A stretch of 63,999 nt of DNA, filler included, from Globobulimina sp. (GCA_003354225.1; 7 parts of 7 records of this genome joined end to end with filler, not necessarily neighbours in it), one strand, 5' to 3'; counted from the first letter of the whole stretch, positions 4,202-47,322 are shown. Translations and numbers: made by a program. Notes: a model not told the origin generated them from the letters alone.

Positions 4202-7024
4202 ATGTCGACTTCAGTGTTTTTACTGCCTGTACTGATGTACATGCATGCTAATGATTTGAATGGCAATCGCTGCCACTACAATAGAGAAATAAACTTCTAT
4301 AATACTGTGGAAGCAGCAGGATGTTGGCTATTTCATGAGCCAATAACTGATTTGTTCACATGTATTAGAATCTGCATTGCATTGTATTTGTTGGTGATTG
4401 TAATCTGTTCTTTCATGTATTCATCATCTAATCATAAATACAATTCATATTGGTTCGGTATATACGCAGAATGGGTCCTATTAATCAATGCGTTCGCTGC
4501 GTTATTATCCTCCTATATCACATGTATTATATGGTATAAATATAAATATAAATATCCGCAACAAGCAATGAGTAAACATAACAACGGCAGCTATTCCATT
4601 GCCAACGATTCAGAAGACATTGAATTGGAACTAAAACAACATTTAGGTATAAACTTGCATTCTGATACAGATATAGTTGAGACAATGGACGATGACAACG
4701 ATGATGACATCGACGAAGCACAATTTATGATTAAACAAAGAAATAAATTGAATATTATGAAATTAGATAATATCTCCTATGGTTTAGGGTCATTGCATAA
4801 TTTGTATAACATGGTATTACATATTGGGCTCTCCGCATGTTGTATGTCTTCCATTTCTTACTGGTTTATGGTTGATTACAGTTTGGAGAATATCAACGAT
4901 GACATTGATTGGATTGTTACTATTTTGAATATACAATATTATATTTTTATTGTTGCTATATTATTATTTCAATATTTTGTCACCTTTACGCAGTTGACTT
5001 ATTTTAATGGCACTTTGCAAATATTAACATTTGACGCAGTGTTTTCTCTTTTTATCGTATTGTTTGATATCATACAAAAAGAACCAAGGTCAGCTCAAAA
5101 TAGTTTACACATTTCAGCAGATATTAAGATATAATCCAAATACTGTCCATTTTCTGCATTCTATCATTCTGTGACATAGAACTTTTGTAGAATCCAGAAA
5201 ATGTGGATTGTATCAATTGAAATGTCAGTAAAATCTGTAAATTATTTTGGATATGTTCTGCAAGGATAACGTTTATGGGCATACGCACAGAAAATGACAA
5301 CTTTGACTTTGAATTATTAGCGCTGATATTTATATTTATGAGTGTTCATTTTGGCATTCATTTATTTTTAACATTTGTGAAAAATACATTTTTGATCCAA
5401 TATATTAAGTTATTAAAATATGTGGAAATATTTAACAATAAAAAGTATAGATATTACAATCCAGATATCACACTCAATGACATTATGGATCCATTCGATT
5501 TCGAGCTCTTAGTTGGCGAAGATTTTATAAATGACATAATTATTGAAAAAAAAGCACAGGACAACAATATCGATGATAATATCAATAATTACGAATCGGA
5601 AGGAAGCGACATTGGTTATTCAAGTCATGATTTTCACCGCAAAGACAAACTAAAAAATAACATGAATAAAAAACAAATCATCACAAACATTCTAAAAAAG
5701 AAATGGAAGTCAATAAAATTAAAACAATATCAATATTCAACCATGACAACAGTCGAAAATAATGGCATATCATTTGACGGAGACACCGCAAATAACGCAA
5801 TTAAAATTGTGTTTGGCAGCAATATGCATCAACGCTTTAATGACATGCCAGCGGTGCGAGCATTGACCAGTTATAACCCGCATATTGTCATGTTTCTGGG
5901 CAATAATATTTATGTGGATGAGGCACCGAGAAAATGCGGATTATTAAAGACAATCATCGACGGTATGTAGGTAACGTATAACATATATTTTCTATCATAT
6001 ATACACGTACGCAGATGATACAACATTCGGACATTCCATGAATGCAATGTTCAATTTTTGGAAACTGGACGATATAAAATTGGATCCTTCCACAGAGTAT
6101 CAACGCTTATTGAAGCATAAAGACTTTATTCTGTGCAATCCCGATGATTCATTACCAATTGTTTTAGGTACGTGGAGCAAGCATGATTATGGCGGTCAAA
6201 ACAAAAACGCTGAATACGAAAATAAATACCATTCTAAATCAGCATTCCTATCGTTTTTAGATCGCATTGATTTAAAACATGAGCTGACGAATTATATTGA
6301 CACTATGAAAGCGTCCACTTATCGCGGGATATATTACCACTATGACTATCATTACGTATTTGAGCATGACGATGATATCATTGATGAGCAGGATAAGCAC
6401 ATATTTATTCGCTTTGTAATGTTGGATTTGAAGTTTCATCGCAAAGAGGAAGATATGTTTGGTGTGGATCAATGGATTTGGATCAATAAATTGTTGCAGA
6501 ATACAAAAGAGAGGAAAGATAAACCGGATTGGCACATATTTGCATTCGGTACGCCTTGCTTTGTGGAGAAATTCAATTTAAATGAAAATATGCAATCAGC
6601 AGCAACCTATGTCGCAGGAGATGGTTGTAAGCAGTTTAAATTACCAAATATATTGTCGCCGATTCCGATGTCGGATTACAATGAATGGGATATATTGTCA
6701 AAAAGGAAATTGTTAATGTTAATTAACGAGATTGGCATTGCGAATCGCACGATATTTGTAAGTGGAAATATGAATTATTCGCAGGTGTTGCAAGAGAATG
6801 AATATAAAATCTATGAGTTTGTTAGTTCGTCGTTGACGCATTCAATACCATCCTGTATACCAAACGATTATTATATTAAAAATAAATATGAGTTTAACAC
6901 GGCACAAACTGATGTGTGCAATGTTAATGGTTATGGATATCTCGAAATTGATAAAAATGGTTGGAAGTTTTGTATAAATGATGCTAAAGGAAATGTTCAT
7001 ATTCCTCTATCAAAAAGATTTTAA
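4202..7024 (+). CDS. Multi-pass membrane protein fused to a degenerate PhoD-like (alkaline phosphatase D) domain; introns 5089-5264 and 5963-6014
   Basis: Both GT..AG introns join the three ORFs in frame. Several TM segments in the N-terminal half. PhoD-like motifs IVFGSN, FLGNNIYVD, GTWSKHDYG, FGVDQWIW, VSGNMNYS and YEFVSSSLTHS. Confidence 0.8.
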
Positions 7025-9397: not shown

Positions 9398-9497
9398 NNN
9401 NNNNNNNNNNNNNNNNNNNNNNNNNNNNNNNNNNNNNNNNNTTAATTAATTAANNNNNNNNNNNNNNNNNNNNNNNNNNNNNNNNNNNNNNNNNNNN
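9398..9497. other. Artificial contig spacer N44-TTAATTAATTAA-N44
   Basis: The same 100-nt spacer occurs six times; its 12-mer gives stops in all six frames. Confidence 0.98.
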
Positions 9498-13671: not shown

Positions 13672-14122
13672 TTTTGTCAACTAAATTTTTTGTTAACTAA
13701 GCTTACTGTAAAACGCGTTAAAAAACTGTTTTAGTATTACGTACTTTAGAATAGCACATATTTGAAACACAATTGTTGTATACATTATCTGAGAAACGCT
13801 TTGCAAATCCAGAAACTGTTTGCTATAGGTTTGTCTTGGGTTTGTTCTGTGTTTGTTCTGTGTTTGTTATAACTTTTGGACGCCAGTAAAGACAGACACA
13901 CACAAAAGAAGTGGTTTAGAAGTGTGAACCTAAAAAGTCAACTATCCACTTTATGAAATTCCAGCATAACTGAACTGTTGCATGTGAATAAACAATAAAA
14001 AAAAACGAGTTAGAATGTTAGATTACTAAATATAATATATCAAAAAGTAAGGAACATACCAAAAAGTAAGGAACATATCAAACACATGTACATATAGTTT
14101 GGATTAAGGAACATTTCATTTT

Positions 14123-18884: not shown

Positions 18885-18984
18885 NNNNNNNNNNNNNNNN
18901 NNNNNNNNNNNNNNNNNNNNNNNNNNNNTTAATTAATTAANNNNNNNNNNNNNNNNNNNNNNNNNNNNNNNNNNNNNNNNNNNN
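18885..18984. other. Artificial contig spacer
   Basis: N44-TTAATTAATTAA-N44. Confidence 0.98.
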
Positions 18985-19536
18985 CAAAATTATCCATTAA
19001 TATTACTGAAATCCTGTGCTAAATCATTTGATTTTTCAGCGCGAACAATTTTATAATGCAAATATAGTAAGTAATAAATATTTTATGACTTGGAATGAAT
19101 GAATAGGTTCCTGATCACATGAAGTAATACTATCGGGTGATGCATATGCTTGAATTGAGGTTATCAAATAACAGAATATTGCAATAAGAAATGCACTTTT
19201 TGAGATGTTGCTGCTGTTTTTGCTGCATAAATGCATCCAATCCCACAATAGCATTGTTTTGTTTTCATTCTTATTCTCTGATATTGGACTACACGCATTT
19301 ACTGACTCTTCATAACGTTCATTTTGGTTCATTGCAGACCAGTCTTTTTGCTGATTTCTTTTGTGATGGTATAACGTGCAAAATGATGTGGTGTTTAAAA
19401 TGATGTGGACAAAATCAGTGACATTCAGTGCGCAGGAGACTGACAAGCAAAAAAAAACAAAATTATCCATTAATATTACTGAAATCCTGTGCTAAATCAT
19501 TTGATTTTTCAGCGCGAACAATTTTATAATGCAAAT
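18985..19536. repeat. 79-bp exact direct repeat (18985-19063 and 19458-19536)
   Basis: CAAAATTATCCATT...ATAATGCAAAT occurs twice and duplicates the 3' end of the RelA/SpoT-like gene. Confidence 0.92.
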
Positions 19537-20944
19537 GCATTTTTTTTCTTACCTTCAAAAAAGGCAGTAACATGAGTTGAATCTCCACAATCATATTCTC
19601 ATAAATTGCATTAATCATTAAAACTCTATATCCAAATTCAGCTTTGGAATGTTGATCAAATCCATTTTTAACTCTTAATATTTTCCCACCAAAATATTGC
19701 GGTTGACTTATCAAATTAAATAAGCTGATCAATTCAGCAGAATTTTCACAAACCAATGCACAACGAACCCAATCTTGAACCATAAAATAAGCGCTGGGAA
19801 ACTCATGCTTTTCTGAATAATCTCTAAATACTTTACTCCAAACTCTTGATTTTGTTTTAATTGGTCCTCCTCTGTAACCAATATCATGATCATAGTCTGT
19901 TTTTAAATCCATTCCAATTCTATTTTCTTCAAAACATTGTTGCATCAATGCTTGGAATGCATCATTAATTTTCGATGATATTCTCCAAAAAAGCTCCCTT
20001 AAAACAATAGATGGCTCCAATATCGCTTCAGCATTCCTTATATCATCCAGCCATCCATTTACATCATGTTTAGCAAAGCCTAACTCTCCAAATTGTTTTA
20101 TAATTAATGGTTCCAATTCTTTATCAATAAAAAAGCCTGATCCATACCATGCAAATACATCATCTGATATTCCAATCACATGTTTACGAATAAAGTCTGG
20201 AGATAATTCAAAGTTACCTGCACAAATGCAATATGTTAATGGAATATTTTTACACACAAAAACATTTCAAAAATTACATTGTTTATATATACCTTTATTA
20301 AATTTCATATTATCATCGCATACAATATCTAATATCGGATCATTGTTACTTTCTAAATTGGAATATTCAGTGAGTAACGGTTGCGATAATTGTATCAATT
20401 GATTTTGTGATAAGTTCTTTAATTCATTGAAATATTTACTGTCTCCTTTGAAATTCCACGATAATATTGATTTTAAATATAATTTTATATCCTTAGACGC
20501 AGACATTGATGAAATAGATAGCGATTTCAATAAATCAGCGCTGTCATTGAATATATGTTTGCAATATTGCTTATATTTTTCTTTATTTGATCGAAAGGTT
20601 ATTTCCGATAATAAATAAATATATGATGCATTTAATCGTACTTTTTTGTCCTTAAATTGTGTATCTAAATGTGTTTCAATCAACGTAGTTATTTTATTTG
20701 CCGCTTCAGACTCTGAATCGGATGAAATTGACTTTCCAATTGTTACTCCAAGATTCCATAGTATTCCACCATTTATATACTCAGGAAATGTCATAGGGGA
20801 ATTGCATATTTCAGTTATCAATGTATCAATTAATGAGGATGTTTGATTATCTATGCCTGGCGATACCTTATTACTATCTTCATCAGAGAGATGAGTGTGG
20901 TTTGCTATATCACCCAGCGCATTGTTTGACACACAACATCCCAT
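19463..20944 (-). CDS. Predicted N-myristoylated RelA/SpoT-like nucleotidyltransferase domain protein (~468 aa); intron 20218-20292
   Basis: MGCCVS start and an in-frame GT..AG intron. Motifs GPIKTKSR..SK, QDWVRC, RVKNGF, GYRVLMIN and IVEIQL. Confidence 0.8.
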
Positions 20945-21031
20945 TATAAAAAAAAAAGGTTTTTTTGTGGTTTAATACAGTAGAAACATATCACTAGTAC
21001 AAATTTATTGAAAAGTTACAAGATCTAAGGT

Positions 21032-22039
21032 CTATGATTGCATGCAGTTATTTTCAATAATACCATATTCCTTAAATTTGCCGCGCTGCACTACATAATT
21101 ATTTTGTTTTAATGCCACAATTTCTAGCTCAATACGTATATACATATCAGTTAATAATTGAATATCTTCTGTTTGTATATTGGTTCTATGATCTGGCCAT
21201 AACTTAACTAAATTTTGATGTCTTGACACTGTTTCCCGTCCATTCCATGTTATATTATCCATACTTGTATTAATATTTATTTGCACCGTAATATGCGTCA
21301 AGGCATGATGCATTTTTAATAATTTCAAGCCCAAAACAAAACATCCTTTGCTGGAATCGCCTGAACCATTCGGTGATAAAATAATACAAAAACAATCATT
21401 GTTAAACGAATCCGCATAAAAACCGCGTCCATTTTCGGCTGTTTTAAATGTATTTAATAATGTTTCATCAATCTCCCATTTATATTCACTACGTGCATTC
21501 ATTATAATTGGTTTATAATAATTTGCTGTATTATAATATGTTTTATATTCAATCGCTAATATTTCTAAATAACAGCAAAGGTTCAGATCAATAAATTGTT
21601 CTAAATTGGTTGTGCTGACAGTTTTTGTTGGCCATCCTTTGCTGCGTCCAACTTTTTGTTTAATATCAAATGATCTAAATTCATATTTTAACTGTGTACA
21701 AAATAGCTGCAAGAAGTAGGTTATAGATCTAATATTTGATGGAATTGATACTAAATATAGATCAAGTTCAATTTGTTGATTATAACGAGTTTTATATAAT
21801 TTACATTGGAATTCAATCTCATTGATAACAAATGATGGCCCTTGTAGTGGCTGCTTGTGTTCTTTTCTTGCAAGAAATGATTGTAACTTTTCATTGTTAA
21901 AGTACCATTCATGCACATCATCATAGAATAAAGAACATAAATCAATGATATCAGTTGGTGAATTCTTTGTGATTTGCTTAATATATGCAGACACTAGATG
22001 TTTTCGATCAGATCTCGTAAGGATGCCTACAGCTGCCAT
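21032..22039 (-). CDS. Tandem MATH/TRAF-like beta-sandwich protein with a short N-terminal helical motif
   Basis: Two repeats of (E/K)W.I/F...L..F..A.......F......F...L. followed by L.L...P/H, and the N-terminal LVSAYIKQ...PTDIIDLCSLFY. Confidence 0.6.
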   Translation of the reverse strand: MAAVGILTRSDRKHLVSAYIKQITKNSPTDIIDLCSLFYDDVHEWYFNNEKLQSFLARKEHKQPLQGPSFVINEIEFQCKLYKTRYNQQIELDLYLVSIPSNIRSITYFLQLFCTQLKYEFRSFDIKQKVGRSKGWPTKTVSTTNLEQFIDLNLCCYLEILAIEYKTYYNTANYYKPIIMNARSEYKWEIDETLLNTFKTAENGRGFYADSFNNDCFCIILSPNGSGDSSKGCFVLGLKLLKMHHALTHITVQININTSMDNITWNGRETVSRHQNLVKLWPDHRTNIQTEDIQLLTDMYIRIELEIVALKQNNYVVQRGKFKEYGIIENNCMQS

Positions 22040-22839
22040 TGTGTTGCTAATGTTTTCATGCGAGTTACGTTTTAAATGAAATAAAAAAATCGTATCTTGA
22101 TTTGGATATGTTGCCATTGCGTGGTAGCGCAAGTGTTTGGGATAATTCATAGGTTATATTGGTCCGCTGCTATCTATTTGATACTGATATAGATTTATGA
22201 AAGTACACTTCCCATAAAACTAAGCAATGTATCGCTATTTTCATTTGCTTTTTTTTATATTGCTATTGTTTTTCTATGTGTTAAACGCAGTTAATTACTT
22301 GGATTAAATAATAATATTGTTATAATTTGTCCCACGACCTACAAATGAATCAACAACCCACTGCAGTCACAACTATTGAGCTAATTTTAATTTTCATAGA
22401 CTTACTTTCTCTGTAGATTGGTTAGGAAGTACTACAGATCAGAATTTCAGATATTAGAAAGTACACTGTACTTACGTCGTCTAAATATAAATACGAGCGT
22501 AGAGTAAGCTTGTAGCCTTGTACGCACCCCAGCATTTAGTGCCATTTACATGCAGGGCAAGGTGTACGCGTCTCCACGCCCGAATTATATTGACATTCCT
22601 AATACTAAACTTTCTGAATCAATGTATCGATTCTAAAACCACATCATTTCTAACCAATCTACAGGGAAAGTACTGCAAGCAGGTCAATAGTTGTGACTGC
22701 AGTACATAGCATCTAAAAAGTCTAAAAAGTCTAAAGAGTAATCCCTCCAAACCAAAGTATAGTGAAAGTAAGTTTAAATAAATCTTTTCAGTAAAATAAC
22801 AGTCAAGAAATCGACACATTTTAGAAGTCTCGTTTAGCA

Positions 22840-25000
22840 ATGGCAACAGTGACTTATTGCAGAATACAAGGCAACGATTTCATTACATATTCAGAGGATT
22901 GGACAACAAAAATAGTACGTAAATTTGGTGCAACAGCTGGTAAACAATTCGCAGAGATTTTAAATGATCAGGTTTGTGTATAATTTTTTTTCATTTTTAA
23001 CAAATTACATTAAATACTTATATACATATATAATTATATATATATATATATGTTTTACATGACCGACACAGTACGCGTCAAAACAGCAATTACTACACGA
23101 TTTAGAAGATCCCCATTGGTTCCATTCATTTATAATGACCAGACTCCATAATTGTAAATCAGCGTATATAAATCGAGATTTTTGCAATACATTTTATATA
23201 ACTTTAAAAGCGATAATCAATGGAAAGGATTACATGTCAAATGGACAACAATTACAATTAATAAAGAATAATATTTTTGATGAATGCATACGTAGAGAAT
23301 TAGAGAAAATTGGATACAATAAACAAGATATTATGCGGATATCATGGAGAGTAAATTCGTTTTGTTTAATATATTCCCGCTCACTAAAAAATTGGTGCAT
23401 TGGTAAAATAATAAAAATATTTATTAACAACCAGACCAATCAAGAATGGTTTCAAGTGACATATGGCAAAAACATAAAAGATATTCAAAGGTTTTGTAAA
23501 TATATTAAGCCGATCATTAATAATAACCATCCTTTGCCTGCTCCTTTATTCAAACATAAAAACACTACAAAACCCACAAAAACAAAACAATATAACAATG
23601 GATTGATATTTCATTTTTATGGCTTAAAAGCGTCAAAACCAAACAACTATAAATCGGGCCTGATTCTGAATGATTTTTTGTTTAAAAATTTAAATAAATC
23701 ATTGCTAACTTCCACAAATTCAACATTACAAAAATATGATACCGTACTATCATTAAAAAAATTCATCCGTAAAACCTTTGACATCTCGCCAGAACATGAT
23801 ATCTTAATAATATTTGCTGATAATATTATATCCAGAAATAATAAACTGAAGCTGCGTAATTTTGGTCTCAGCAATAATTCACTATTATTATTAGCAATAA
23901 ATTGCGATAAATATGATATGGAAAACAATAAAAACGGCACAGATATATATAATTATACGCTATCCATCAAAATGAGAAAAGGATTTGATATCATAACGCA
24001 AGAAGCAAACAGAGAATTATTTAAAATGCCGGTTTGCGGCCATTATATGGACAGACAATCACTGTTTCAATATTCATTAAATCAATTAAAAAATGAAAAT
24101 AATACACATATAAAATGTCCACATAGAAATAATGAGGAAACTGATATGAAATATGAATGGCAGTGCACATTTTGCACTTTTTTAAATGGCATCGATGAGG
24201 ATGTCTGTGAGATGTGTGACAATCCCAAATCAGCAACAAAATTGTTTTGCGAAGCGAGATGGAATTATTGTTTGTTAAAACAAATATTATTGTTCAATGA
24301 TGAAAGTAATTGGTTGAATACCAGCAAGTTAGAATTGTTATTATCACGCAATACAATGCAAAAAGAATGCAATGTGCAGAAATGTGGCAGATGCCAGACA
24401 TTACATTATAGAAATTATACTTTTTTGAGTGATATTAAAACAAAATCCGACATAAAAAGAGCATTTAAAACTGAATGTAGAATTTGTAAGGATTCATTTT
24501 GTTTTTGTTGTGGTGAAGAATGGAGATATGGGCATGTTTGCGACTCCTCCTTTAAAGCTGATGTAATGCAAATTATTCGCAAAGCGGAAACTAAACAAAT
24601 TGGTGATGTTGATGGTGTGCCATCGATTAGATTCTGTCCAAATTGTGCACAGTTAATAAAAGTATGTTGTTTTTGTATGTTATTTTGTAGAAACAAAATT
24701 TATGCGATTTGCTTTATGATTATACAGCATACAGAAGCATGTAAACAGTATGTTATTTTTATATGTTATCTTAAATTAATTTTGTTTGCGTGTTTAATAT
24801 TTGATGTGTTGTTGTTTATATTATGCAGTATGGAATGTAGTCAATGTAATACAGAATTTTGTTTTGTTTGTTTATCGATTTGTGTTGGTGGTCAATGGCA
24901 ATGTGGAAGCTCTGGGGCTGTCTGTCCAGTTTCAAGGCAAAATATTAATGCGTTACCAAATACGATAGTTATTAACAAGAAAACATTTCAATTGTTTTAA
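22840..25000 (+). CDS. RBR (RING-IBR-RING) E3 ubiquitin ligase with ubiquitin-like and RanBP2 zinc-finger domains; introns 22972-23071, 24662-24727 and 24748-24828
   Basis: Splicing restores RING2 CPNCAQLIKHTEACKHMECSQCNTEFCFVC. IBR CGRC..CRIC..FCFCC..H.C, RanBP2 WQCTFCTFLN....CEMC, Ubl DTVLSLKK..LRNFGL. Confidence 0.9.
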
Positions 25001-25246
25001 TTCATTAAACTTTCAGTCGATTGAGTATGTTGTGTTGCTCATCATATTGTTTGTTTAATATAGTTTTATTAATTTTGTAAGAGACTATATAGCTCTTGCA
25101 TTTCTTTACAATTACAATTAATGTTTTATTTGACTACTATAAAAGTTACTTTATTAAAAATTACCTAATAAAATGGAAACGAAAAACACTTTATAGGTCC
25201 TATTCTCAAATTAATTCTGTCAATCAATCAAAAAAGAAAAAAATAT

Positions 25247-28200
25247 TTATAATTTTGAAGTATCATTATACGGAAATGGATAATAACCATATTTTTGCCT
25301 TACTCCCGCAATGTCTTTAATATCCCAATTAATTACATTTTCATCATGAAAACAGGACTCTTTATCATCAATATCCTCCTTTTCCACATTATGTTGATTA
25401 CCAACACATTGTATCGTTAATTTACTTCTTTGTTTTGATTTATTATCAAGAAAATTGTAATAAACATTTAAAATATCAGTTTTTGTTAATTTTTCAATTT
25501 CTTTTGCAACGTTTTCATTTCGTTCAAATTGATATCGATTTTTTATGATTTCCCGCCAATATTTTCCATTTTGCTGAGAAATTGTTTTTGATTTTTCTAA
25601 TAAATTATTAATGACTGATTTCTTATTTAATTCAAAACTCGCATCATCCAAATTGATTAAAAAATCTTTGGTTTGGGTCTGTAAAAAATCTTCAATTCGA
25701 CAATTCAATTTATTTGGATTTGCACAATTTGATTGGATAATAATTCTAAACGACCAGAAACCTTGGTGTGTTGGGTGTGTTGGGTATGTTCTGTCTGCTC
25801 TTGTTTGTGGCGTGAGCTCTGTCTGCTCTTTTGTGTGGTGTGGGCTCTGTCTGCTCTTTTCTGTGGTGTGTTCTGTCTAACCTAAACTCCAAAAATAATT
25901 TTTTTCTGATTGATTGACTCGAACATATGTGTAATCACTTTATGACGCTCAGAACACACACCACACAAATAAGAGCAGACAGAGCCCACACCCCAGACAA
26001 GGGCAGACAGAACACACACAAAAGAGCAGACAGAGCACACCCCAGACAAGAGCAGACAGAACACACACCTTTGCAAATGCTATTAAATGACCACACAATA
26101 TAACCCAACTGCTGTTTGGTACGCAATTCATCGAAACATTTTGCATTTATTATATGACAAAATAATTTTAAGGCGGCAAAATCAGAAATATTATTATCCA
26201 TTTTATATAAATATGTACTCGAAATTGCTGAATTTTTATCTTCTTCGTTGGGACATTTAAACGATACACAATAATTATGATTTGGTGCTAATTTTAAACA
26301 ACCTTTCTTATCATTTAATACTTGCTTTTTTGTATAGTTTGAATCATTATTCTCTTTAATTAAATACTTATCAATCAAATTATAATACGGTTTTATGGTA
26401 TCAATATCATTGATATTTCCATAAATTAATGATTCAATATATAATTTCTCAAATATTCTCTCATATTGTTGACACACCAAATCGTAACTGATTTTTTCTT
26501 CATTTTCTTGCAAATCATACAACGAAACGGCTCGCGGACATAAAAATAACGTATCAATCATATCACAATGCGAATAAGGCTGCGATTTGGCCATTGATAC
26601 AATAATACGATGATATTTTTCTTTATTTATCTCATATTTTTTTTTACATATTTTCAAATTGATAAATTTATGTAATACCGTTTGAACCAATAAATTTAAC
26701 TTATCATTGTACCCTGAAAACTTAAATACGATTCCATTCGAACCATTAAACGCAACAATAAATGACAATGCTGCCTCTTCAAACGCATACGTTAAATCTG
26801 ATAATTCATCATTTAATATCAATATTATTACATCCGTCAAACACTGAGACAGCACCAAATCATTTAAAAACGGTGAATAGCATATAATGGACACACATAA
26901 TTTTGGTTTACGGAATGTTTTATCCATTTTGAACCATATCTTACTTTGTGGCGTCTCACGAATAATATACGGCATATCCTCGGCAGTTTCCTTATTATCC
27001 TCATCCTTGTGCTCATCACATAAAATTTTGAAATCATCCGCAATGTATTTATTCTCCAAAGGCGTGAATAATTTCTGTTCATCAATCACAAAATCACCAG
27101 TTTCAAAGTCAATGGCTTCTTTTTTATACAATGTACCGTACCATTTCTCTTTCTCTTTACATTCACTCTCAAACTCTTTGCTTACTAATTGATAATAACA
27201 ATTCTGTGCAGTTAAACAATTCAAATATTTCCACATTAAATCGTAATTATATTCGAATAATAATCCACTTGAAAACTGCAAGAAATGCTCTCTCGGGAAA
27301 TATCTCTGTAAATTCATTGCCAATGAACGTGAATACCCATATTCTTTTTCTTTCCCTTTGAAATTAAAATTCATTTCTCGAACTTTCCTTCGTTCAATAA
27401 AATAACTCTCCCACTCCTTACCTGTCAACAGTTTCATTTTCGAAATATATTTATAAACAATGCCAATAATTTCTGTATATCTCTCCAATCCATTCGGTGT
27501 CAAATCAATCGTAATATTCATCATACAAAATTCAGGCAAATTATAGTTTAAACCCGCCATTAATCCGCTGGCTAAGCCCAATTCTTTCAAATAGGACAAG
27601 ATAGAACCAACACACTCATCGCCTAAGCAAAAAGACAACAAATTCATACACGTACTGGCCGCTGGTACATAATAGCAATTTGAGTCCATGACCCAATTTA
27701 ATTTAAGTTGGCGTTTCTCGACAATGGGTACTAACTTATACAAATAATTAACGTCCCCAAAGACCTGTGGATATATCCCATATTGCGGTGGCTTGATTTT
27801 TTTATTTCGAATGGGCGAAAATGAATTTTCCGCCAATTCACATAATTGATTCACGTCTTGTTTGCCCACAATGGCTAACTTCATGACTGAGGAAGAATAG
27901 TATTGCTCGTAAAATGACAATAACTCCGCTCGGACATTTACGGATTTGTCGACATCGGTTTTTAAAGTCCGTATATTTCCAGTACCAAATTTATGGAATG
28001 GATGCGATTTATTTGCTAATGATTTATCAAATTGATACAAACGATGTGCATCACTTTGTTCATTGTTGCTATTCTCAGAGTTCACTGCGTTTAATTCGCG
28101 ATCTGTGGCGGATTCGGTGAACAATGGATCTATGAAAAACTGAGCAAAACTATGTATATTTAATATCCTTGCACTCCGGCAAATATTTAGCAACTTTGAG

Positions 28201-28344
28201 GACGACATACCGGTCAATGGCTTGTGGCAAATACTCGCTGCCGACGTCAAATTGGTAGCAAGTGTCGTGCATTCCGGTGGACGCATTGCTTGATCCACCG
28301 TGATCTTTTAAGAATTGTTTATATTCAGCCTCGTCGGGATATTT
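25247..28344 (-). CDS. IDE: Insulysin/pitrilysin family M16 metallopeptidase, 5' truncated; introns 28150-28210 and 25762-26068
   Basis: KYPDEAEYKQFLKDHGGSSNAST, DRFAQFFIDPLF, RELNAVNSE, HPFHKFGTGN, FDELRTKQQLGYIV and FRIIIQS. Confidence 0.92.
25765..26069. mobile_element. 305-bp non-autonomous foldback/MITE-like element forming an intron in the insulysin gene
   Basis: Termini GGTGTGT...ACACACC, inverted arms of repeated TCTGTCTGCTCTT / AAGAGCAGACAGA, TT on both flanks, and a second copy at ~47052-47222. Confidence 0.85.
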
Positions 28345-28444
28345 NNNNNNNNNNNNNNNNNNNNNNNNNNNNNNNNNNNNNNNNNNNNTTAATTAATTAA
28401 NNNNNNNNNNNNNNNNNNNNNNNNNNNNNNNNNNNNNNNNNNNN
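28345..28444. other. Artificial contig spacer
   Basis: N44-TTAATTAATTAA-N44. Confidence 0.98.
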
Positions 28445-32600: not shown

Positions 32601-35600
32601 ACGCGATAATTTGCTCGAAGCAGATCCGGAGCAAAAACAAGATGAATTTGCGAAGCCGTTAGAAAAGTTAAGCGCCGACGAAGTGAATTTTGTGTTGCAT
32701 GAAATAATTAGTTCTGACGATAAATTGAATAATGTCCAGATTGATATTGTTTGCATGAAGGAAATAACCATCAAACAGGGTTTGGACGGCAGCAAATTCA
32801 AAAGCATCACACGCAAAGACTTCAAAAAATTGTATGCTTCCTCTGGAATGAAAGGCGGTCATTCATCCAAATATTTGCAAAATTAAGCAAAATCCAGGCC
32901 GATGAGATTGGGATTTATTTGCGACTGAAACAGAAAGAAAAAGACATTGAAAGCAAACACATCGAAGACGAACAAGAAAAGAAATTGGATGAAATTGAAA
33001 AGGAAGAAAAAGAAAAAGAAGAGGGAGATATTCAAGAAATGGAATTAGAGACTCTGAGTATCCAACAATTTCCGCATTTGTTTATCTGCACATTGCAACA
33101 GAAAGCAACGTATGAAAATAAGTTGGAAGAATGCAAAAATATTCTATTGAAGGAGAAAATGGATGGACTCAAATTTAAACAAATGAAACGCAAAGATTTT
33201 GCCAAATTGTTTAAGGCCATTGGAATGTCGGCCGGTCCCTTGGTCAAAATACACAAAACTCTCAAGAATCTGCAGCCGAATGAGATTGGCCGCAAACTAT
33301 TAATCCCGACGCAATGCGACGGCAAACTGTCGGAATGCCCAAATGTCTCAGATTTGTGTAATGTGTTAGCTCTGTTTCACAACAAATCGGTGGAGCAATT
33401 ATTGGCAATTAAAGTAAATATATGGCAGACAGTGCAGATTATAAATAACTACAATCATTTAAGCAGCAAACACAGCTTATTTGGTGACCAAATTTATGAT
33501 TTAGCGGAAGTCCGCAATGAAGACGAAGCGGATCCGCTTATTTTGAGCCCTCAACAGCAATATAAACAATTCCAACATCGAGTTTATACGCTGATATCCG
33601 GTAAGATTGGTCCCTGTCATTGGGAGGGGAATAAATGTTATTTTATAAGGCGGCATTCGCGAGATATTGAATTGGCGGACAATGCGAAAAAGTACGGCAA
33701 TGAGACGAATGCAGTCGTTTTGGATGCAATCGCGTCAATGCATAGCTATATATTTCATAATATGGAGCATCAATTATACCGCTTATTCGATGGACAAGCT
33801 GTGGCCGAAGGGGCGTACACCGATAATACGACAGTGATGCCCGAGGACAGTAATACTGGCTCAAATATGATGGAGTCGACGGATACAAAGACAATAAAGA
33901 TGCGGCAACGGAAAGGGCTGAAGAATAATGGCCACGACGTGTTTTATGCGGAAGTACCAAATGCAAAGTCGTCGCCGTTGGACGATGAGGACAGTGATAT
34001 GGAGCGGGAAGAGGGCGTACCACAAAATAAGTGGCGGCGGACAGATTGTGAGCGATTTTCGACGCCGATAAATGATGCAAATATTACTAGCAATGTTGTG
34101 GTTGCGGTCCCGGTCAAACAGAAACAGAAAGAGCAGAAACCAGTGATACCACCGCTGGCAACCCATTCTTTTACAGATGTGGTTTCCATCCCTTATTCGA
34201 ATGCGTTTCCGTCCGATTACCCCTCGCATCAATCAAATGTCTCCTCTTTGCAGTTGCAGGTCGGCGGGAAAACAATCTCCAACAAATCGCATTCATTGCA
34301 GCAAAGTGGCAGCAAATTCAATACTTCGATGGTGAACGTCAAGAATAAAAAGAAAAACAAAGAGGAGATCTACGCCATCAATTTTGGCGAGAAATTGGAT
34401 GATTGGTTCAGTCCGTTGGAAGGCCCGTTATTTAACAATGTCTACGAAGAGGTGACGCGCAATGAATATGAGAAGATCTTTGAAGAGACGTACAAGGAAA
34501 TCAAGAAAAAGTGTCAAATATTAGCGAAATGCGCGTCCAATGACCAAATGCTGTTCAGTTTGGAGGAGCTGATTGCGATAAAGTTATACACGGATTGTGA
34601 CAAACTACAAAGCAGATTTCGACGCACTTTTTGGAGCGGCACCGCCAAGAAACAGAGACAGTCCTTTTTTCAGTGGGCGCTGATGTTACAAAAAACCATT
34701 TGTTACGGCGCGGTGCCGATTACTTTCGATGTTTTCCATGGTTTGTCCAATTTGTTTACAGTCAAGAAGCTGTTGCCCATTTTCCACGGACCGATATCGA
34801 CCACGACCTCGGCCAATGTGGCCACCAAATTCGCGGATACAAAGGGGATGTTATGGCGGATCCAGCCGCGGCTTTGGAGCGAATTGGAGAATCCCGTCGG
34901 CATCAAAGTGCATTGGATGTCGCGCTTTGAGTATGAAAAAGAAGTGCTTTTAATGAACTGCCCATTGCCGATCCGCAAGACAAAGGCCTTTGAGACTGGC
35001 ATTCATAAACGAATCGAATATTTATTGGATTACTTGGCCAAATATAATGAGCCCATCATTGATAAGAAGAAGTTTTATACGCAAGTCGGTTTAGACAAGT
35101 TGGTGTCGGACAAATTTATGGGCTCCGAACTGGAACGGCTATGGCTGTGCGATTTGGGCAAATCCGAGAATTTGTGGAAAATATCAAAGCGCGCCGTGCC
35201 GCAAAGCAAGTTATTACAATGGATGGGTTCGCGGAAGACCTTAAACCAGAAATATTGGCAGAAATATGTGGGCCAGAAAGTGGCCAATGCGAAGCACACA
35301 TTTTTTAAGAAAATGCAGAAAATCCAGGAACAAGTGACCGAGGAACAGAAAGTGTATTGTTATGGCATGATTTTGTCGAAATTGTTTGAGAATCAACGCA
35401 GGAAATATCAGCAACAATTGGTGCTCGACAAAGAGGAGTTGGCGCGGACCAACGACCCCCGACAACAGCAAATGTTGACGAAAAGAATAAAAAGTATTTC
35501 TAAGACCATTCAGTACGGCGTGTTGGAGAAAAAAGGGGCGACGGAGATGTTGAGTTTGTTGCGGGGATTACCCATCGATAAAATATCCGAAACTGATCCG

Positions 35601-37714
35601 GCCATTCGATTATTTCGCGGGCAAACTCAAAATGAGATTTATGAGTTCCTGACGGAGAGAATTGAACCGGCTCCATTTGCCTCATTGAAATTGAACTATT
35701 CCGTTTATTACCGCTTATTGAACGAATTGGATATGTTTTATTTGCCATTTGCTGCGTTTACGCGAGTCGTATACAACGGAGCCGTGATAACAAAAGATGA
35801 GAAGTCGAGTTTTAAGGATCCGGTCAAAGATTACAATAAGTTATATGCTCGGAAACATGCCAGCAAATCCAACTTATTTCGGCATGGCCGGTATGCGACG
35901 ATCGTGCACTTAGAAGAAGGCATTCCTTTATTGCAGGAAATGTGCGTCAAACATCGCATAAAATATAGATTACAGTTTCGATTTCGACCCGTTCGACCCG
36001 ACAAACAAAGCAATATTCGGGATATGAATGTTAATTTCAATGTGTTGCAAGCTGCTTTTTCTGATTTGGAGATAAATGGACATACTTTCAATGAGATAAT
36101 GGACAATGAATTTGAATTAATCTCTCAATCGGTTGCATTGGCGGAGAGAGCAGACATTGTGGCCTCTGAAGTCATGAAAGTGTTCGAAGAGATAAAAAAC
36201 GAATATTTGCAACAAAAACAGCCATTGTTGGAAGACATGAGCTGCGATGCACTATTTGTGGTATTTAAGGATATCATGTCTCGGAATTGCAGGCAGCGGA
36301 AACAGCGAAAAGAACGCCGAAAGTCTGAGAAATATGTGTGGCAATTTGTGGATTTGGAGGTGAAAAAAATAAAAAAGGAAATGATTTATTTGAATATTGC
36401 GGGTTGTGTCCATTTCGAAGTGCTGAATGGCGAAAACATATGGAATTACAAGTTAATGTGTTGTGTGATGGACGAAGATCCGGATAAATGGATCTGTGTT
36501 GATAAGGGACGGTATCACGTCGACTTAGACTGCGTGGTTGCGGCCGGCGAACAGGTTAAAATCTCGTCGTATGCCGCCATGCCAAAAGGAAGGAACAAAT
36601 TGAAAAAGTTCCATCGCAATGTCTGGCTTTTTCGCTCATTGCATTTGAAAGAAAACAGCAAATTAGAAATACAGCCCTTTGGCTATGACTTTATATTAAA
36701 TAAAGAGGAGAAGGATAAGGAGGCGGAGGAGAAGGAGGAAGAGAATGATTATGATTTTTATGAGGCTGAGATGAAGGAACTCGGCGATAACAAAGAATTT
36801 AAGTTTGGCAGTATTCGCATTTTTGCGTATGACAGCATTGTAATTAAAGAGGGCTCCAAGATTACGGTGAATGGCAAAGGAATGTTTGGTTCGCCATTGA
36901 CGGCGGCGATAAATATTGGGAGTGGCGGCCGGGTGCAATGGACCAATGGCAAATGTAAGAAGAGCAAAAACGAGAATGTGTTCAGTGGTGCCGTGGATGT
37001 GTTTAGTGGCGGCGGCTATGGCCCAGTCGGCGGCGGCGTCATTGATGAGAGCAAAGATGGACAATATGAGAGGAAACGGGGCAATGCGCCGTAATATTGT
37101 TTGGCGGCGACGTGTATGGCGAGAAGGAGTTAGATACTTTGTATTATGGCTCCAGTGGCGGCAAAGGCTGCGTCGAGAGCAATGATACCAATTATTATCA
37201 AACGAGTGACCGCGGCGGCGGTATTATCGAATTGATTGCACATAAAATCGTCATAAAAAAGAATGGCAAGATTACGGCCAATGGAAAAGTGGGCAAACCG
37301 GGCGGCAAATGGTTTAGTGCGGGTTCTGGCGGTTCCATTAAAATAAAATGCAAACAATTTGAACATGATGGCTTTATACAGGCGGTTGGTGGCAGATTGC
37401 CTTTGTCCGCCAACACCAATGAAAGGGACAAAGATGGCAACACAAAAATCGATAAACATTATCAACCAATCCATGGCGATGGAGGGAGTGGAAGAATTGC
37501 AATTTATTTTGATGAGTATTTGTCAAAAAATGATTTGAATGACAGTGAGTTTGTGGAGCCGGCGCCTTATGTCGATAACACTGCAAAATGTAACAAATCG
37601 AGACTTCCTCAGTGGAACAGACATGCTTCGAATAATAAAAATGAAGCATTCCAAGTTCCTCAAATCAAACCTAAGAGTGGTGCTGGACAGCAAGTCGTCT
37701 TTTCTTTATTGTAA
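29689..37714 (+). CDS. Giant (~2,670 aa) protein: zinc finger, four SAM-like repeats, Cys/His domain, ADP-ribosyltransferase-like domain and Gly-rich C-terminal domain; 1-nt frameshifts at ~32870 and ~37069
   Basis: Three ORFs join with one added base each, and the first join restores a repeat unit. ART-like VFHG...FHGPISTTT...SRFEYEKEVLL; GGGYG..GGDVYG..YGSSGG..GGGIIEL tail. Confidence 0.75.
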
Positions 37715-37797: not shown

Positions 37798-37897
37798 NNN
37801 NNNNNNNNNNNNNNNNNNNNNNNNNNNNNNNNNNNNNNNNNTTAATTAATTAANNNNNNNNNNNNNNNNNNNNNNNNNNNNNNNNNNNNNNNNNNNN
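37798..37897. other. Artificial contig spacer
   Basis: N44-TTAATTAATTAA-N44. Confidence 0.98.
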
Positions 37898-38403: not shown

Positions 38404-41400
38404 ATGCTAAATTTAGTGCCATCACCACTGAAATCACTAAAACCAATCAATGACAAAAAACGCAAACGTGATGAATTAGTAACCACTGTGAATAATTTTA
38501 CATCCAATGGCCATACCAATCCAACCAAAAAAAGGAAAACCAGCAATCATTCCCTTCCTTCATCACTCACAATTACACACACACCAAATCACTCAGATAA
38601 TCCTTACAAATATCTTAAAAACAAAGTTATGCAAATTCATGAAATTTCACATCAAAAAAAAACCAATTTCCATGCATAACATCCCAATGAAATTTACTTG
38701 TACATTATTTTAATTTTAATTTGCTTTTTTTCATTAAAATCAAAAAAAAAATAATAAATACGAATAACGATCTGATTTGTATACAAATACTTAGTCGAAG
38801 AACACTGCAAATTTTATGGATGAATGTCACATCGGTCTCAATGACTGGCCCTCGAATCTAGACCGGCTCCATAACCACAATCCCAAGCATAACAGTGAGA
38901 GTCGACCACAGTTCCTCTTACCATCCAACACTTCATCTCTATCCCACTCCCAATCCCATAACTCATCCATAGCCAATTCACCGCAATGCAGTCACAAATC
39001 CAAGCACAAACATCGTAGAAACCATAGCAAATCCAACAAAAAAAGCAAACACGGCCACAATATCACCGCCACCAAAGCTAAAGACATGAATGATGTGTTA
39101 TTGTCGCAGTTAATGAGCGGTATAGAGGAAGACATGGGTCTACCAATCCACATTCTAGCCACCATCAAACAGGAACTAATCAACAACAACCCGCGCAACT
39201 TCCAACTGTTTAGTCACCCATTCCGTATTTGCGCTCGCTCCCTTTGCTTTTCATGGTGCCAGGATAGCGCAGTTCGACCTATACTAAAAAAACGAAACTG
39301 AATGTGTATAATCCTTGCACTCCCAATACAACATAACCTAACCCATACACTGCAATACATAGATTTTTGCAGGGAATGTCGCTATGCTCCATCGGCATCA
39401 TCAAACCGGACCAATTCGTCAATATGATGTCGCCGCTATTTGTCGGGAACAAGAAGTTGAAATTAGTGCTCCACCAATTACGCACCATCCTGCATATCCC
39501 GTTGCATTACTTCCATTCCACGCCGCTCTACGCGCCCTTTCTCAGCGACCTATCCACGTGCGATAAGAACATGAATCTCTCCTTACGCGCCACCGCCGAG
39601 CAATACTCTCAGATCGTCGACTTCAACAACGCCGGCACCAAAATCAGAATGAACCCCTATTTATCCAACAAAACACCCTCGGTTTCACCCAAGAAAAGCA
39701 CCCAAAACTCCACGCTGAGCAGCAGCAAATCCGCGAGCGTCTCTGCCAACTTTAAAGCCGCCATGATAGGCAGTGGCAGTGTGTCGTACCGACAGAACCC
39801 ACACTATAAAAAGAATATGCTCTGTTCCAGCAAACAGGCCTTCCATTTGCGTGTAATTAACGACGAATATGCCTCGCGTAGTACCGGTGCGGAAAATAAC
39901 CCTGAAAACGACCATATGACCAATCGGAATAAACACGAAATCGAATTGAACGACAAAGAGCATATCATGACACTAGTTACGTACATCGTATATCCCCTTT
40001 GTCTCAACACAGACACATTAAGAATGCAATACATGTACAGGGGGACTATTACGTCGAACAGAACAGCCACGCCATACAATGCTTAAAACGCTTAGAATCG
40101 CGCATTTTGTATCTGTACAAAGAATATAAGAAGTTATTTATCATTCGCGATGACTATGACTCGCTGGACAGCAACGACGATGACAAAAACACTGTTGTCG
40201 ATGAAACGAATTTGCATTTCTATGACTCGGACACTTACACCACAGTCACTGAAGAGGCTCACACGGACAGCGATATCAGCCTCGACGACGATAATCATAG
40301 CACCACCTCCGAGCCCTTGCGGCATAGAAATAACCGCAACAGCAACAGCAACGTCACTGTAGGCGGACATGTAAGCAGCTCGCCACGCAGTGTAAACATA
40401 CCCTTTCCGCGCAAATCCACCTCGATGGGCGGCCTCAACACTATCCCCTCCATACCCGAACACAAGTCGATGATGGAAAATAATGACTCGGATGGTACTG
40501 TAATGACCGCGCGCTCCGACGGACGCTTATCTTTTCCCAAAGTGCCGTCACGAGCTAGGCCGAAGCGCATAATTACAATCGCTCCCAAACCGGTGCCCAA
40601 ACCCAAAGCGAAGCGCAGATTACGCCGCAAACGCAACCTACAAAAGACAGAAACGGATAAAAAGTACGTCCTCAGCCGCATTTATGCCGATATTGACATG
40701 GATTACTATCTCACGCCGGTGTGCTGGAGTGCGCTGCGGAGATTATATGAGGAACATTTTGATTCTGTTCGTGCGGCGTTTAAAAACAACCCGTTATCTG
40801 CGATCAACGTAGTTTTGCCGCGGTTGCAGCGCAAACAGAAAGAATGGTCGTCGAACCGGAAGATTGCGCAGGAGATTTACCGTGATGTGGCTACGCGAAA
40901 TTGCATGAAGGCGCTAGATTGGCAGCCGAAGTATAAGCGGCTGGATAAGACGCGATTGAGCCACAATGAGTTGTGGCGGGAACTGATTACCGCGCAAAGT
41001 GTATTGAATCCGCAGTATGCGGTGATTCTCGAAGGGGAGCGGCAGAAACGCAGTGGTTTGAAGGATGCGCAGCGGGAACAGTTTAACAAACCGTACTCGC
41101 CCATGGACGGTGCGAGCAGTATTAAGCCGACACGGTTGATTCGGCAACATTTCACACCGAAAGTAGCGACCAATTCCACCATTGCGATTGCGCGGAGATT
41201 AGAGGGGAAACATAAGCACAAAAATAGCCACAATCGCACGCGGAAAGACAGTGTGAATGATGTGATGGATGTGGATGGAGAGAGCGATGAAGATATCAAG
41301 ATGGCGGATGGTGGGAATGCCAATCATAAAAAGCATAAATTTGATTTCCGAATGAATATATACTATAATTACGGCTTGCGGTTCGATTTAAAGAACAATG

Positions 41401-44279
41401 ATTTTGAGAGCGTGATAAATTTACCGTTGACGTCGCACGAACATTGTTGGAATGTAATTGTTCAATATCTGAGTACGGAGAACAAGCACAAAAAGATCAA
41501 GGACCAGATGTTGGAGGATGTGATTAAGTTTTATAGCAATTTTCTATTTTTGCTGTTTGAGTTTGATATATTTCACGAGGAGTTGTTGCCGAGTAAAATC
41601 TTCGAGAAGTTGTCGTTCAAAATGAATGAAAACATGCTGACTGAGGCCGGTGGCGTTGGCAGTGATGAATCGGTGGTGAAGTTTGATGATTTGTGTAAGT
41701 TGAAATACATTGGATTGAATATTGGAGAGTTGCGGTTTAAGCCTTTGGTATTTGATTATGAATATTTTGGGAAAGATATCGATTTAAATAACGTGTTGGA
41801 TGACAATGTCTTGTCGTATCACAATCGAATCTCGCATGTTATCTTTGTAAATCGTGAGATTTATAATATATTGCGATTATATATTCATTTATTTCAACGG
41901 CTGCAGAAAGCGCGCGATTTGTCCACCAATCGGTGGCGATTAAATTTCGATGCACTTAAAAAGGAAGAAAACGAATTGCGGCAAGAAAAGAATGAACGCG
42001 AGTTCTATGGGAAATTGATGGCTTTGATACAAGGACAGATTAAAGATACGGAGTTCGATGCCATTGTGCAGCAATTATTTGGCCCGGAGGGCTATGAATG
42101 TTCCAATATTAAATATTTAATCAAAAACTTATGTGTAAGCATGCAGAATATACTAATTTGTAAGAAAAATAAGCAGAAAAGAAGCGGTAGGAACAAAACC
42201 TGGGAAATTCTCAAATTGTGGCATTTTTATTATGCGAAATGGAAAGAGATCGATGTCAATAACATCAAGCAAAGAATTGCGTTGCTGCGGATTTATTATG
42301 GCGATATTCGTAATATATTAGGCAATAAAGAGTGTGTGGTGATGATTGAATATTTCCTCGATTCCAAAGAGATCGGCGTACAGTTTTTAGGCGAGAACAC
42401 TGCAAAAATGGATAATGATTACGTACAAAGTAATGCTGTCATTCGTAGCTGGCAAACGCCATTAAAACAACACAATTCGTACAAACATGTTCGTAGTGTG
42501 CCGTTTTTGAGAAAAAAACTGGAGAAATTAGAAAAATATCGCATTAAAAAACAAAACAAAAGTAACAATAACTCGAATAATAAGAAATCAGCGTCGTACA
42601 AACGTATTAGTACCACGATTGATAATGTGAGTATGTATATTTTCGAAGCGTATTCCAAGCGAACGAACAGGAAAAAGGGCAAACAAAAAGCGAAAAAGAA
42701 TGAGGATTTATTATTTTTAATGAGACGACAAAACCTTGAAATGAATAATAATAACAATCATAATGACGGTCATGAATATACGTCGGATGATAGCAACCTA
42801 TCCAAATCCAAACGGAAACGCAAACGGAAACACAAAAATAAACAAATAAATGGACATTTGCCATTGAATAATGGCCACATAAGCAACGAACAGAAAACGC
42901 AGGAAAAACAGCCACATAATAACGATAAAAAGAATTTGAGTCTGTGGTACCATCCAAGCAGTTTATTATATTTCCAATCTGTAAATCTATCCAAAGTCAG
43001 CAAAAGAAGCAAACCGTTGCATAAGAATAGAATCTCTGTCTCCAAATACGACAAAAAAGTGAAAAAGTTCAATATTTGGCACGAGAAACGATTTAAAGAT
43101 CTCGAGAGGTCGCAACATTTACATTTGAGTGCCAGCAAAAGCAACAAATACACCTTCTCCCCACACTTAAATGGCAACCATGCCAAAAACAACCTATTCG
43201 GCATCAATACGGACCATTTACTAACCAACAACTCCGCGCTCCGCAGCCATAACAATTCGCCCTATTCCACCAATACGAGCAATATCGTCAACTCTGCATT
43301 GAACAGTATGATGCCGCAAACACAAAACAACGTCTCATCATTGTTACAAGGCACCAACACAAACACCAACATCCAACAACTAATCAACAACAACAACCAA
43401 TTATCCCTCAACAACAGCCAATCCATCAACAACTTATTAATCAACAACATCTCCGCCGACACCTACACCGCCAATGGACAAACTGCGCAAAGCAACGGCA
43501 ATTCTGCCGGCATATACAGCGCCGCTTTGAATGCCAGTAATGGCGGTGTCAATGCCTTGAATATAGCTCAACAGCAAGCCGCCGCACAGCAATATTACGC
43601 CTCCTACAGAAGCACTGCCGATGCAAGCGGAGTGCCGGCAGCGCACAGCCAAGCCAGTAATGTCACGCCCACTCAATACACAGTGACTACGAACTATCCC
43701 TCCGCGTATGCTGCGTATGGACAGTATGCAATGGGCACCACACCGACGGGCTATGTCGCCATACAGCAACAAGGCGTGCCCTCTCACGGGAACACCTCGT
43801 ACGTTATGGATAATAGAACCGGCTCCATCTATGCGGCGATCCCCGCCCCGCAGCATTATGCCACGACTGCCAATGGAATGGGAGTGTATGCCGCCGCTCC
43901 GCAGACGCAGTATGTCAGCATACCCACTGCCAATATGTCGGCCATTGCGCAGCAAGGCATACAGCAAGGGATGCAGCAGCATATTGTGCAGGGTGCGAAT
44001 GGACAGTCTGCGGTGGTTTTGACGCAGAATAATCAGAATAGTGGTAATGCGAATCCATCGCCGGGGAATGGCGGTGGCGCCAATGTGTCGGTGGCGAGCG
44101 GCGGGAATAATACCATGTCGACTCCACCAAATATAACGGTGACGGACAAAGGGAACAATACGGATGGCAGCGGGGGCAATAATAGCAATAATAACGGGAT
44201 GCAGTTGCCTGTGTTGAATGCGGCGGTGAGGAATAATTCGACAGACACGAGTTGTAATAATAAAAGTGATGTAAAATGA
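38404..44279 (+). CDS. SIN3: Sin3-like transcriptional corepressor; introns ~38700-38794, 39208-39362 and 39976-40040; probable homopolymer frameshifts at ~38660 and ~38813
   Basis: PAH-like FQLFLQGMSLCSIGII, HDAC-interaction domain SYR...CS...VINDEYAS...NKHE, AINVVLPRLQRKQKEW, and Sin3_C-like IFVNREIYNILRLYIHLFQRL...EFDAIVQQLFG. Confidence 0.85.
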
Positions 44280-46920: not shown

Positions 46921-47051
46921 CTTAGATTTATTTTGTTTTTGTTTATATTCCATGGGCGTATGAAGTTGTTCAATTTATGTATTATATAACATCACGAATG
47001 TCGATATTTTAATTCTTTAATGAAAGAAATGCATTTAAGTCAGAGGTTGAG

Positions 47052-47222
47052 GTTCTGTCAGCTCTTTTGTGTGTGTTCTGTCTGCTCTTTTCTGTGTGGG
47101 TGGGCTCTGTCTGCTCTTTTGTGTGTGTTCGTCTAACCTAAACTCTAAAAATAATTTTTTTCTGATTGATTGACTCGAACATATGTGTAATCACTTTATG
47201 ACGCCAGAACACACCCCAGACA
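47052..47222. mobile_element. Second, intergenic copy of the foldback element, cut by the contig end
   Basis: Left arm of TCTGTCTGCTCTTT units plus a core of ~75 bp nearly identical to 25875-25948. Confidence 0.85.
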
Positions 47223-47322
47223 NNNNNNNNNNNNNNNNNNNNNNNNNNNNNNNNNNNNNNNNNNNNTTAATTAATTAANNNNNNNNNNNNNNNNNNNNNN
47301 NNNNNNNNNNNNNNNNNNNNNN
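47223..47322. other. Artificial contig spacer
   Basis: N44-TTAATTAATTAA-N44. Confidence 0.98.

Follow-up and report, generated by a model that had tools for sequence, protein, structure and literature searches.

A foldback element inside a foraminifer-like insulysin gene has the boundaries of an exactly spliceable, introner-like intron

Introduction

Does a mobile element that lands in a conserved gene simply break it, or can it become an intron that leaves the message unchanged? The question is raised by an insulysin gene in a 63,999-base stretch of DNA (the window), whose coding sequence is interrupted on the minus strand by a 305-nucleotide (nt) foldback element (25765..26069) resembling a miniature inverted-repeat transposable element (MITE).

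Transposon-driven intron gain is now regarded as a main source of new introns, with the cases on record concentrated in algae, dinoflagellates, fungi and a few animals. Introners are elements whose splice sites are carried by the element or recruited from the duplicated target and its flank, such that the insertion is spliceable. Approximately 82% of classified introners are DNA transposons with terminal inverted repeats (TIRs) (PMC12130899).

Here, we describe the element and its host gene, the splice sites at its boundaries, the forms of the locus present in public sequencing runs, and the other copies of its family. The original prediction, read from the sequence by itself, was of an introner-like foldback element belonging to an intron-generating transposon family. 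We conclude that the insertion is probably a transposon-derived intron that is spliced exactly in vivo; the wider claim about the family fares less well.

Results

Candidate splice sites at the element boundaries

The proposed intron is a phase-1 intron of 307 nt on the minus strand (25762..26068), with its donor GT at 26068-67 and its acceptor AG at 25763-62. Read along the gene strand, the upstream exon closes with ...TGCAAAG and gives way to GTGTGTGT, the start of the intron; the intron finishes with ...CACACCAAG, and GTTTCTGG opens the next exon. Comparison by script confirmed that taking out 26068..25762 is, letter for letter, deletion of the element together with one TT, and that splicing and precise excision give the same peptide (SICK-G-FWSFRIIIQS) with no scar, just as predicted. 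The donor GT is formed by bases 2-3 of the element, and the acceptor AG by the last duplicated base (A) and the first exon base (G), so that, as in introners, one site is carried by the element and the other recruited from the duplication and its flank. The repair is scarless because the first exon base (G) is the same as the first base of the element. The empty site, AAAG|GTTT, resembles a proto-splice site.

Three native introns are available for comparison: one of 61 nt in the same gene (G|GTATGT...ATAG), and two of 62 nt (GTATAT...ATAG) and 49 nt (GTATGT...ACAG) in a phosphoglucose isomerase gene on a related metagenome contig, L001, described below. The element's donor (G|GTGTGT) and acceptor (AAG) fit these local signals, which are G|GTATGT or G|GTATAT and YAG. 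In the foraminifer Reticulomyxa filosa, the table available gives two introns per gene with a mean of 87 bp (PMC13746701).

Structure of the foldback element

The element differs sharply from its surroundings in composition, with 46.6% G+C against 27.6% in the flanking 2 kb. Across it the plus strand reads ...GAAACC TT GGTGTGTTGGG...AACACACACC TT TGCAAA..., with terminal inverted repeats (GGTGTGT.../...ACACACC) as in MITEs. Arm 1 (25765..25878) contains the GGTGTGT terminus, a 9-nt terminal duplication and three units of ~28 nt carrying TCTGTCTGCTCTT; arm 2 (25950..26069) has four units, one with a mismatch, and the terminus ...ACACACC; and between them lies a unique AT-rich core of 71 nt (25879..25949; 29.6% G+C). 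Tandem Repeats Finder (TRF) reports a period of 28 in 2.9 copies with 90% matches at 25790-25870, and periods of 26-28 and 49 at 25950-26069. Allowing up to one mismatch, the window contains 10 sites of the motif TCTGTCTGCTCTT where 0.02 would be expected (none of 100 shuffles reaches 10); seven sites are in the insulysin element (three on the plus strand, four on the minus) and three in a second copy. The arms are complementary over up to 79 nt at 77%, or 42 nt at 88%, and the gene-strand RNA of the intron folds as one long hairpin (-166.9 kcal/mol, z = -14.4), with none of 100 shuffles as good. On this strand arm 2 comes first, starting with the donor G|GTGTGT, and arm 1 forms the 3′ part of the intron, of which the last 30 nt are C/A-rich and lack AG. 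Arms of tandem subrepeats around a unique middle, with a core common to all three copies seen, place the element among foldback types. The structural statements of the original prediction – inverted termini, repeat-unit arms, AT-rich core, and TT on both sides – are all correct, and the unusual repeat-armed structure is real, with TRF tandem units in both arms.

The flanking direct repeat consists of TT (AA on the gene strand) at 25763..25764, which together with the next base G (25762) provides the acceptor AG, and of TT at 26070..26071, extendable to 5 nt (ACCTT on the plus strand). At the boundary it can be read on the gene strand as AA, AAG, AAGG or AAGGT, that is, as 2 to 5 nt, because five letters fit either side. 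Assignment to a transposon superfamily from the target-site duplication (TSD) was dropped, as the duplication is readable as 2, 3, 4 or 5 nt. Rfam matches, all to long-hairpin microRNA-precursor models, were rejected as generic hairpins lying far under the gathering scores (61.9 vs 245 bits and similar). At only 305 nt the element has no capacity to encode a transposase, and its open reading frame (ORF) of 65 amino acids matched no protein, whether among longer proteins or those of similar length.

The window itself consists of seven pieces of ~9.3-9.5 kb each, ordered by falling length and chained by N-run linkers around TTAATTAATTAA (9398-9497, 18885-18984, 28345-28444, 37798-37897, 47223-47322 and 56575-56674), and no feature is readable across the joints. 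Coding density in these AT-rich pieces (about 30% G+C) is high and their open frames are long; the insulysin insertion lies wholly inside piece 3 (18985-28344).

The host gene and conservation at the junction

Two open frames on the minus strand adjoin the element (28307..25935 and 25876..25247), and in Pfam they match Peptidase_M16_C, Peptidase_M16_M and PqqF-like_C_4. The exon upstream of the element (26069..28149, minus strand) carries the first two domains and the start of the third, and the last exon (25247..25761, minus strand) carries the rest of PqqF-like_C_4 and the stop codon (25247-25249). Further upstream on the same strand are the native 61-nt intron (28150..28210; G|GTATGT...ATAG|T) and an exon fragment reaching the end of the piece (28211..28344); the 5′ part of the gene is missing. 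The closest homologues are from foraminiferal transcripts – an MMETSP Ammonia protein with 64% identity, and Bolivina argentea P0003 with 60% – and Nonionella stella proteins match too; oomycete and animal insulin-degrading enzymes come next, at ~33% identity. It is this protein similarity that leads us to describe the organism as foraminifer-like.

With both introns removed, a single frame of 909 codons runs to the stop, and its alignment with Bolivina P0003 is one high-scoring segment pair of 882 columns and 61.6% identity that crosses the junction. A MAFFT alignment with 18 homologues, chosen from 120 listed, has a junction gap in none of them and Gly at the split codon in 17. The Pfam profile PqqF-like_C_4 is likewise continuous, with positions 1-27 ending five residues before the junction, positions 36-100 starting two residues after it, and eight residues for the eight profile positions between. 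If the element were retained, translation would meet a stop 44 codons into it, and the protein would lack its last 170 residues.

Filled and joined forms in public sequencing runs

Eight public runs in four studies contain the stretch, and four of them (X1, X5, X6 and X8) were compared with the window. X1, from an organism denoted A that is possibly the source of the window, has the filled form: a 1090-nt contig runs unbroken from 26037, 33 nt inside the element, into the exon, and contains no joint. X5, which comes from a different study and bears the label of another organism (B), contains the joined form: in a 251-nt contig free of mismatches, 25759 is followed directly by 26067, and the 307 nt missing between them have GT..AG ends on the gene strand. 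At 170.5, the depth of this contig is comparable to that of neighbouring exon contigs (140-143). In X6, from an organism (C) that is ~90% alike, two matching pieces are separated by 80 nt as compared with 387 nt in the window, which is 307 fewer. The exact joined sequence therefore exists in nature, either as spliced mRNA or, in a relative lacking the insertion, as mRNA or DNA. For the predicted 26069/25761 junction this means that the exact joined form stands, being present in X5, whereas splicing in transcripts of the organism carrying the insertion is likely.

Contig depth is a poor measure, and only the core-to-exon ratio within a run was used. In X1 the element core has a depth of 318-360 against 5.1 for the exon, ~60-70 times deeper, which suggests roughly 60-70 copies. 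In X5 the core (71-84) is at about half the depth of the exon (140-177), despite at least five different element flanks, a ratio that is hard to square with genomic DNA and fits X5 being RNA. In a neighbouring exon contig, X5 differs from the window at six of 458 bases, and four of the six are synonymous third-position changes. Separately, at 26353 the window has T where the X1 and X5 contigs both have G, at a second codon position (Glu vs Ala); here the window has either a variant of its own or an error of assembly.

Other copies of the element

A second copy lies on the plus strand at 47033-47222 and comprises one arm, the core and the start of the other arm, where it is cut by the end of piece 5. 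The two cores are 99% identical (73/74, 25875-25948 against 47131-47204), and a GH3 gene ends 113 nt before this copy begins, placing it outside coding sequence. A third, full copy was found through an arm 22-mer, whose single match in metagenome contigs is L001 (PJEL010020259.1; 4889 nt, 34.6% G+C). It occupies 522-821 of that contig, is 88% identical to the insulysin copy over 307 nt, and is flanked by two convergent frames, of which the one for a CAP-Gly protein stops 148 nt before the copy. A core 24-mer had no match in metagenome or viral contigs, neither the arm 22-mer nor a core 29-mer matched in genome contigs, and blastn against phages gave no match. Of the 40 window ORFs of at least 180 amino acids, 36 were scanned – all but two antisense overlaps and two that touch linkers – and none of these matched a transposase family. 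L001 resembles the window in composition and gene density, and its phosphoglucose isomerase gene (2381-4279), with the two short canonical introns mentioned above, is one of its features.

Copies were expected to share consistent termini and a target duplication, and in this they disagree. The termini are not conserved over the three copies, reading GGTGTGT.../...ACACACC in the insulysin copy, ...TGTGCTCTG/...GCACACCCC in L001 and GAGGTTGAGG... in the second copy, and the arms of different copies start in different phases of the tandem unit. The L001 copy ends ...GCACACCCC, with its last 35 bp pairing perfectly, and has no recognizable flanking duplication; the insulysin copy has one of 2-5 nt, and the second copy has one end only. 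Among loose ends of other copies in X1 and X5, two read ...CACACC followed by AA, and others have quite different flanks.

The family is nevertheless real, repeated, and structurally of the foldback/MITE kind. What the original prediction called an intron-generating transposon family thus survives as a family, from its three copies and the depth of its core, but not as an intron-generating one: one of the three visible copies is in coding sequence, the other two are intergenic (3′ of genes), and with the termini and duplications inconsistent the description is unproven.

A short tandem GGTTTGTTCTG array at 13828-13905, followed by ...GACGCCAG...AGACAGACACACACAAAAGA, is weakly like the foldback arm units and the end of the core (local scores of 35 and 31, where the highest among 200 shuffles was 25), and may be a decayed, internally deleted relic of the family.

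Other features of the window

A different MITE-like element, unrelated in sequence to the foldback family, is intergenic in piece 3 (22360-22705) and has outer inverted termini of ~20 nt (ACTGCAGTCACAACTATTGA...) and an inner 26-nt inverted pair (22403-22428 and 22647-22672) that is 92% complementary. The start of the same piece contains an exact 79-nt direct repeat (18985-19063 and 19458-19536), its copies 473 nt apart. In piece 1, beside a tubulin gene fragment, 900-1119 and 3263-3499 lie ~2.37 kb apart and share two collinear repeats, one of 135 nt (93%) and one of 63 nt (87%). Two very long open frames, at 32745-37094 (1449 amino acids) and 39933-44279 (1448 amino acids), lie in regions of 40-49% G+C and have no Pfam match, and a similarly G+C-rich region with glutamine-rich stretches lies at 47340-47700.

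Discussion

A transposon insertion that could be spliced out without a scar

The sequence is consistent with a simple course of events. A short non-autonomous foldback/MITE-type element would have inserted into the Gly codon GGT in the last domain of an M16 insulysin gene, in a genome that appears AT-rich, intron-poor and foraminifer-like, and would have duplicated 2 to 5 bp of the target. Because the element starts GGTGTG on the gene strand, insertion would create a donor, G|GTGTGT, close to the native G|GTATGT, and the last duplicated base A with the next exon base G would supply an acceptor. With a donor borne by the element and an acceptor from the duplication and flank, the spliceosome would be able to remove exactly the element and one duplication – 307 nt, in phase 1 – leaving no scar. 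The long hairpin may bring the two splice sites together, CCAAC motifs in the AG-free last 30 nt could act as a branch site, and mobility was presumably by cut and paste. An introner mechanism for the insulysin insertion is plausible, and splicing of the element is likely.

Several observations weigh against splicing of the element. At 307 nt the intron would be five to six times the length of the three native introns seen, its donor lies inside a very stable stem, and the 3′ arm has many upstream AGs as possible competitors of the proposed acceptor. The insulysin copy is the only one of the family seen inside a gene. None of the eight runs that contain the stretch is on record as RNA, and X8, from organism A and guessed to be RNA, has no record matching it. 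Finally, since X5 is labelled as another organism and departs from the window at six of 458 bases in a neighbouring contig, its joined form may stem from a locus that never received the element.

These points lead to the most serious of the alternatives, a recent and disruptive MITE insertion that is spliced poorly or not at all, such that the filled allele is null or truncated – which a multinucleate or polyploid cell, or a single strain, might tolerate – and X5 represents the empty allele of a close relative. The two forms do fall in separately labelled organisms, with X5 only joined and X1 only filled, and two of the three copies with visible context are intergenic, as for a general MITE. 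Moreover, an A|G acceptor would occur at the right offset by chance in about one in twenty insertions (an estimate from base composition), so that with tens of copies one spliceable case needs no special adaptation. However, the reading frame remains open on either side of the element, through 909 codons in all, and donor and acceptor match the native signals. The four synonymous third-position changes among the six differences from X5 in the adjacent exon point the same way, if weakly, and the ~12% divergence from the L001 copy, if it postdates the insertion, would imply that the gene has long stayed intact despite its interruption. Taking both sides together, we consider a disruptive insertion unlikely, if far from negligible.

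Splicing might instead be inexact, with other GT/AG pairs in the arms giving a small insertion or deletion, or several isoforms. GT and AG dinucleotides are indeed numerous in the arms, and introners of Aureococcus add 12 nt to the transcript according to the text available (PMC9860276). Yet the sole joint in the four runs compared is the exact 307-nt one, and the homologues have no length variation at the site, making this reading improbable.

More improbable still is removal at the DNA level, resembling that of internal eliminated sequences (IESs) in ciliates, in which the segment would be excised precisely between short direct repeats in some nuclei or life stages and X1 and X5 would be two states of one genome. 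The segment derives from a transposon and has a direct repeat of 2-5 nt at its ends; one data set includes it and another lacks precisely this segment, and no run has both forms. Nothing requires such a reading, however: the boundaries are canonical GT..AG with flanks of local consensus, the core-to-exon depth ratio points to X5 being RNA, and we know of no demonstrated IES excision in foraminifera. Misassembly, with a repeat falsely placed within the gene, is the least probable explanation of all, for although the family breaks assemblies (piece 5 ends inside the second copy) and the left junction is in no independent contig of the runs compared, the X1 contig – from what may be the window's own source – passes the right junction without a branch, and a chimeric join is not expected to yield a flanking duplication and an exact, codon-restoring boundary.

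Splicing of the insulysin element, then, is the reading that we carry forward. A larger claim is conceivable but doubtful: that this is an active foldback-type introner family in Foraminifera, the first in Rhizaria, now making scarless introns in the conserved genes of a lineage with few and very short introns. Were this so, a donor would be available whichever way the element inserted, its GGTGTG termini being symmetrical, and the insulysin copy would be an intron gain observed at a time when public data contain its filled form alongside an empty (or spliced) one. With a clean and datable insertion into a single, conserved gene, and with both the filled and the joined form public, the locus would be a convenient test case, and it could show how an intron-poor protist with introns of roughly 50-60 nt copes with a structured insertion of 307 nt. 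If the gene is not spliced, the insertion is merely a MITE knockout.

Comparison with known introners and foldback elements

The insulysin insertion is a transposon-derived, introner-like intron of a known type, in a lineage for which we found no description. A full-text literature search found no paper titled on foraminiferal introners, and Rhizaria, foraminifer and Reticulomyxa are absent as words from the main texts of two large introner surveys (PMC9860276, PMC12130899), whose supplementary species lists may hold a case, and of a 2024 review (PMC11282704). For the rhizarian Lemnamoeba, no introner signal is reported in the part of the source available (PMC13746701). The comparisons below likewise refer to the available portions of the sources cited.

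The closest parallel is class 13 of the introner-like elements (ILEs) in the dinoflagellate Polarella glacialis, where the donor is formed by element nucleotides 2-3 and the acceptor by the last A of an NNNA duplication and the downstream G (10.1101/2020.10.14.339549). The splice geometry is the same, with the element and one duplication removed exactly, and since it has already been described there it is not new here. The Polarella elements differ in having a 4-nt TSD (NNNA) and a GC donor, as compared with 2-5 nt and GT for the insulysin element, and hundreds of intronic copies per class, as compared with the one seen here in a foraminifer-like genome. Tandem-unit arms are not mentioned for class 13 in the preprint text available.

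Introners of Micromonas pusilla and Aureococcus anophagefferens are likewise short and MITE-like, with TIRs and TSDs, one splice site being carried and the other derived from the duplication or flank (PMC11282704, PMC9860276). The TSDs of Micromonas are 3 nt (PMC11282704), elements in Aureococcus carry both sites and leave 12 extra nt where the insulysin element leaves no scar (PMC9860276), and both families are overwhelmingly genic, whereas two of the three visible copies here are intergenic. Symbiodinium and Chrysochromulina have elements with TIRs and/or 4-bp TSDs, Symbiodinium having both (PMC9860276). In Chrysochromulina the 5′ site is carried and the 3′ site co-opted, as in the insulysin element, whereas in Symbiodinium the 3′ site is carried, and its TSD of 4 bp compares with the 2-5 nt readable here (PMC9860276). 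Amoebophrya introners have inverted repeats that form a hairpin joining the exon ends, and direct repeats of 3-5 nt that overlap the exon/intron boundaries, but their inverted repeats are 8-20 nt and their introns mostly non-canonical, in contrast to the ~115-nt tandem-unit arms and GT..AG boundaries of the insulysin element (PMC7789003).

What distinguishes the insulysin element from known introners is its foldback arms of tandem units. Long inverted arms of tandem subrepeats around a unique middle, with unit number varying between copies, are the hallmark of the foldback (FB) transposons of Drosophila. The FB arms are far longer than those described here, their TSDs are 9 bp, and to our knowledge FB elements are not known as intron makers. 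The likeness between the two lies in their architecture, the insulysin element sharing with FB the arms of tandem subrepeats around a unique middle.

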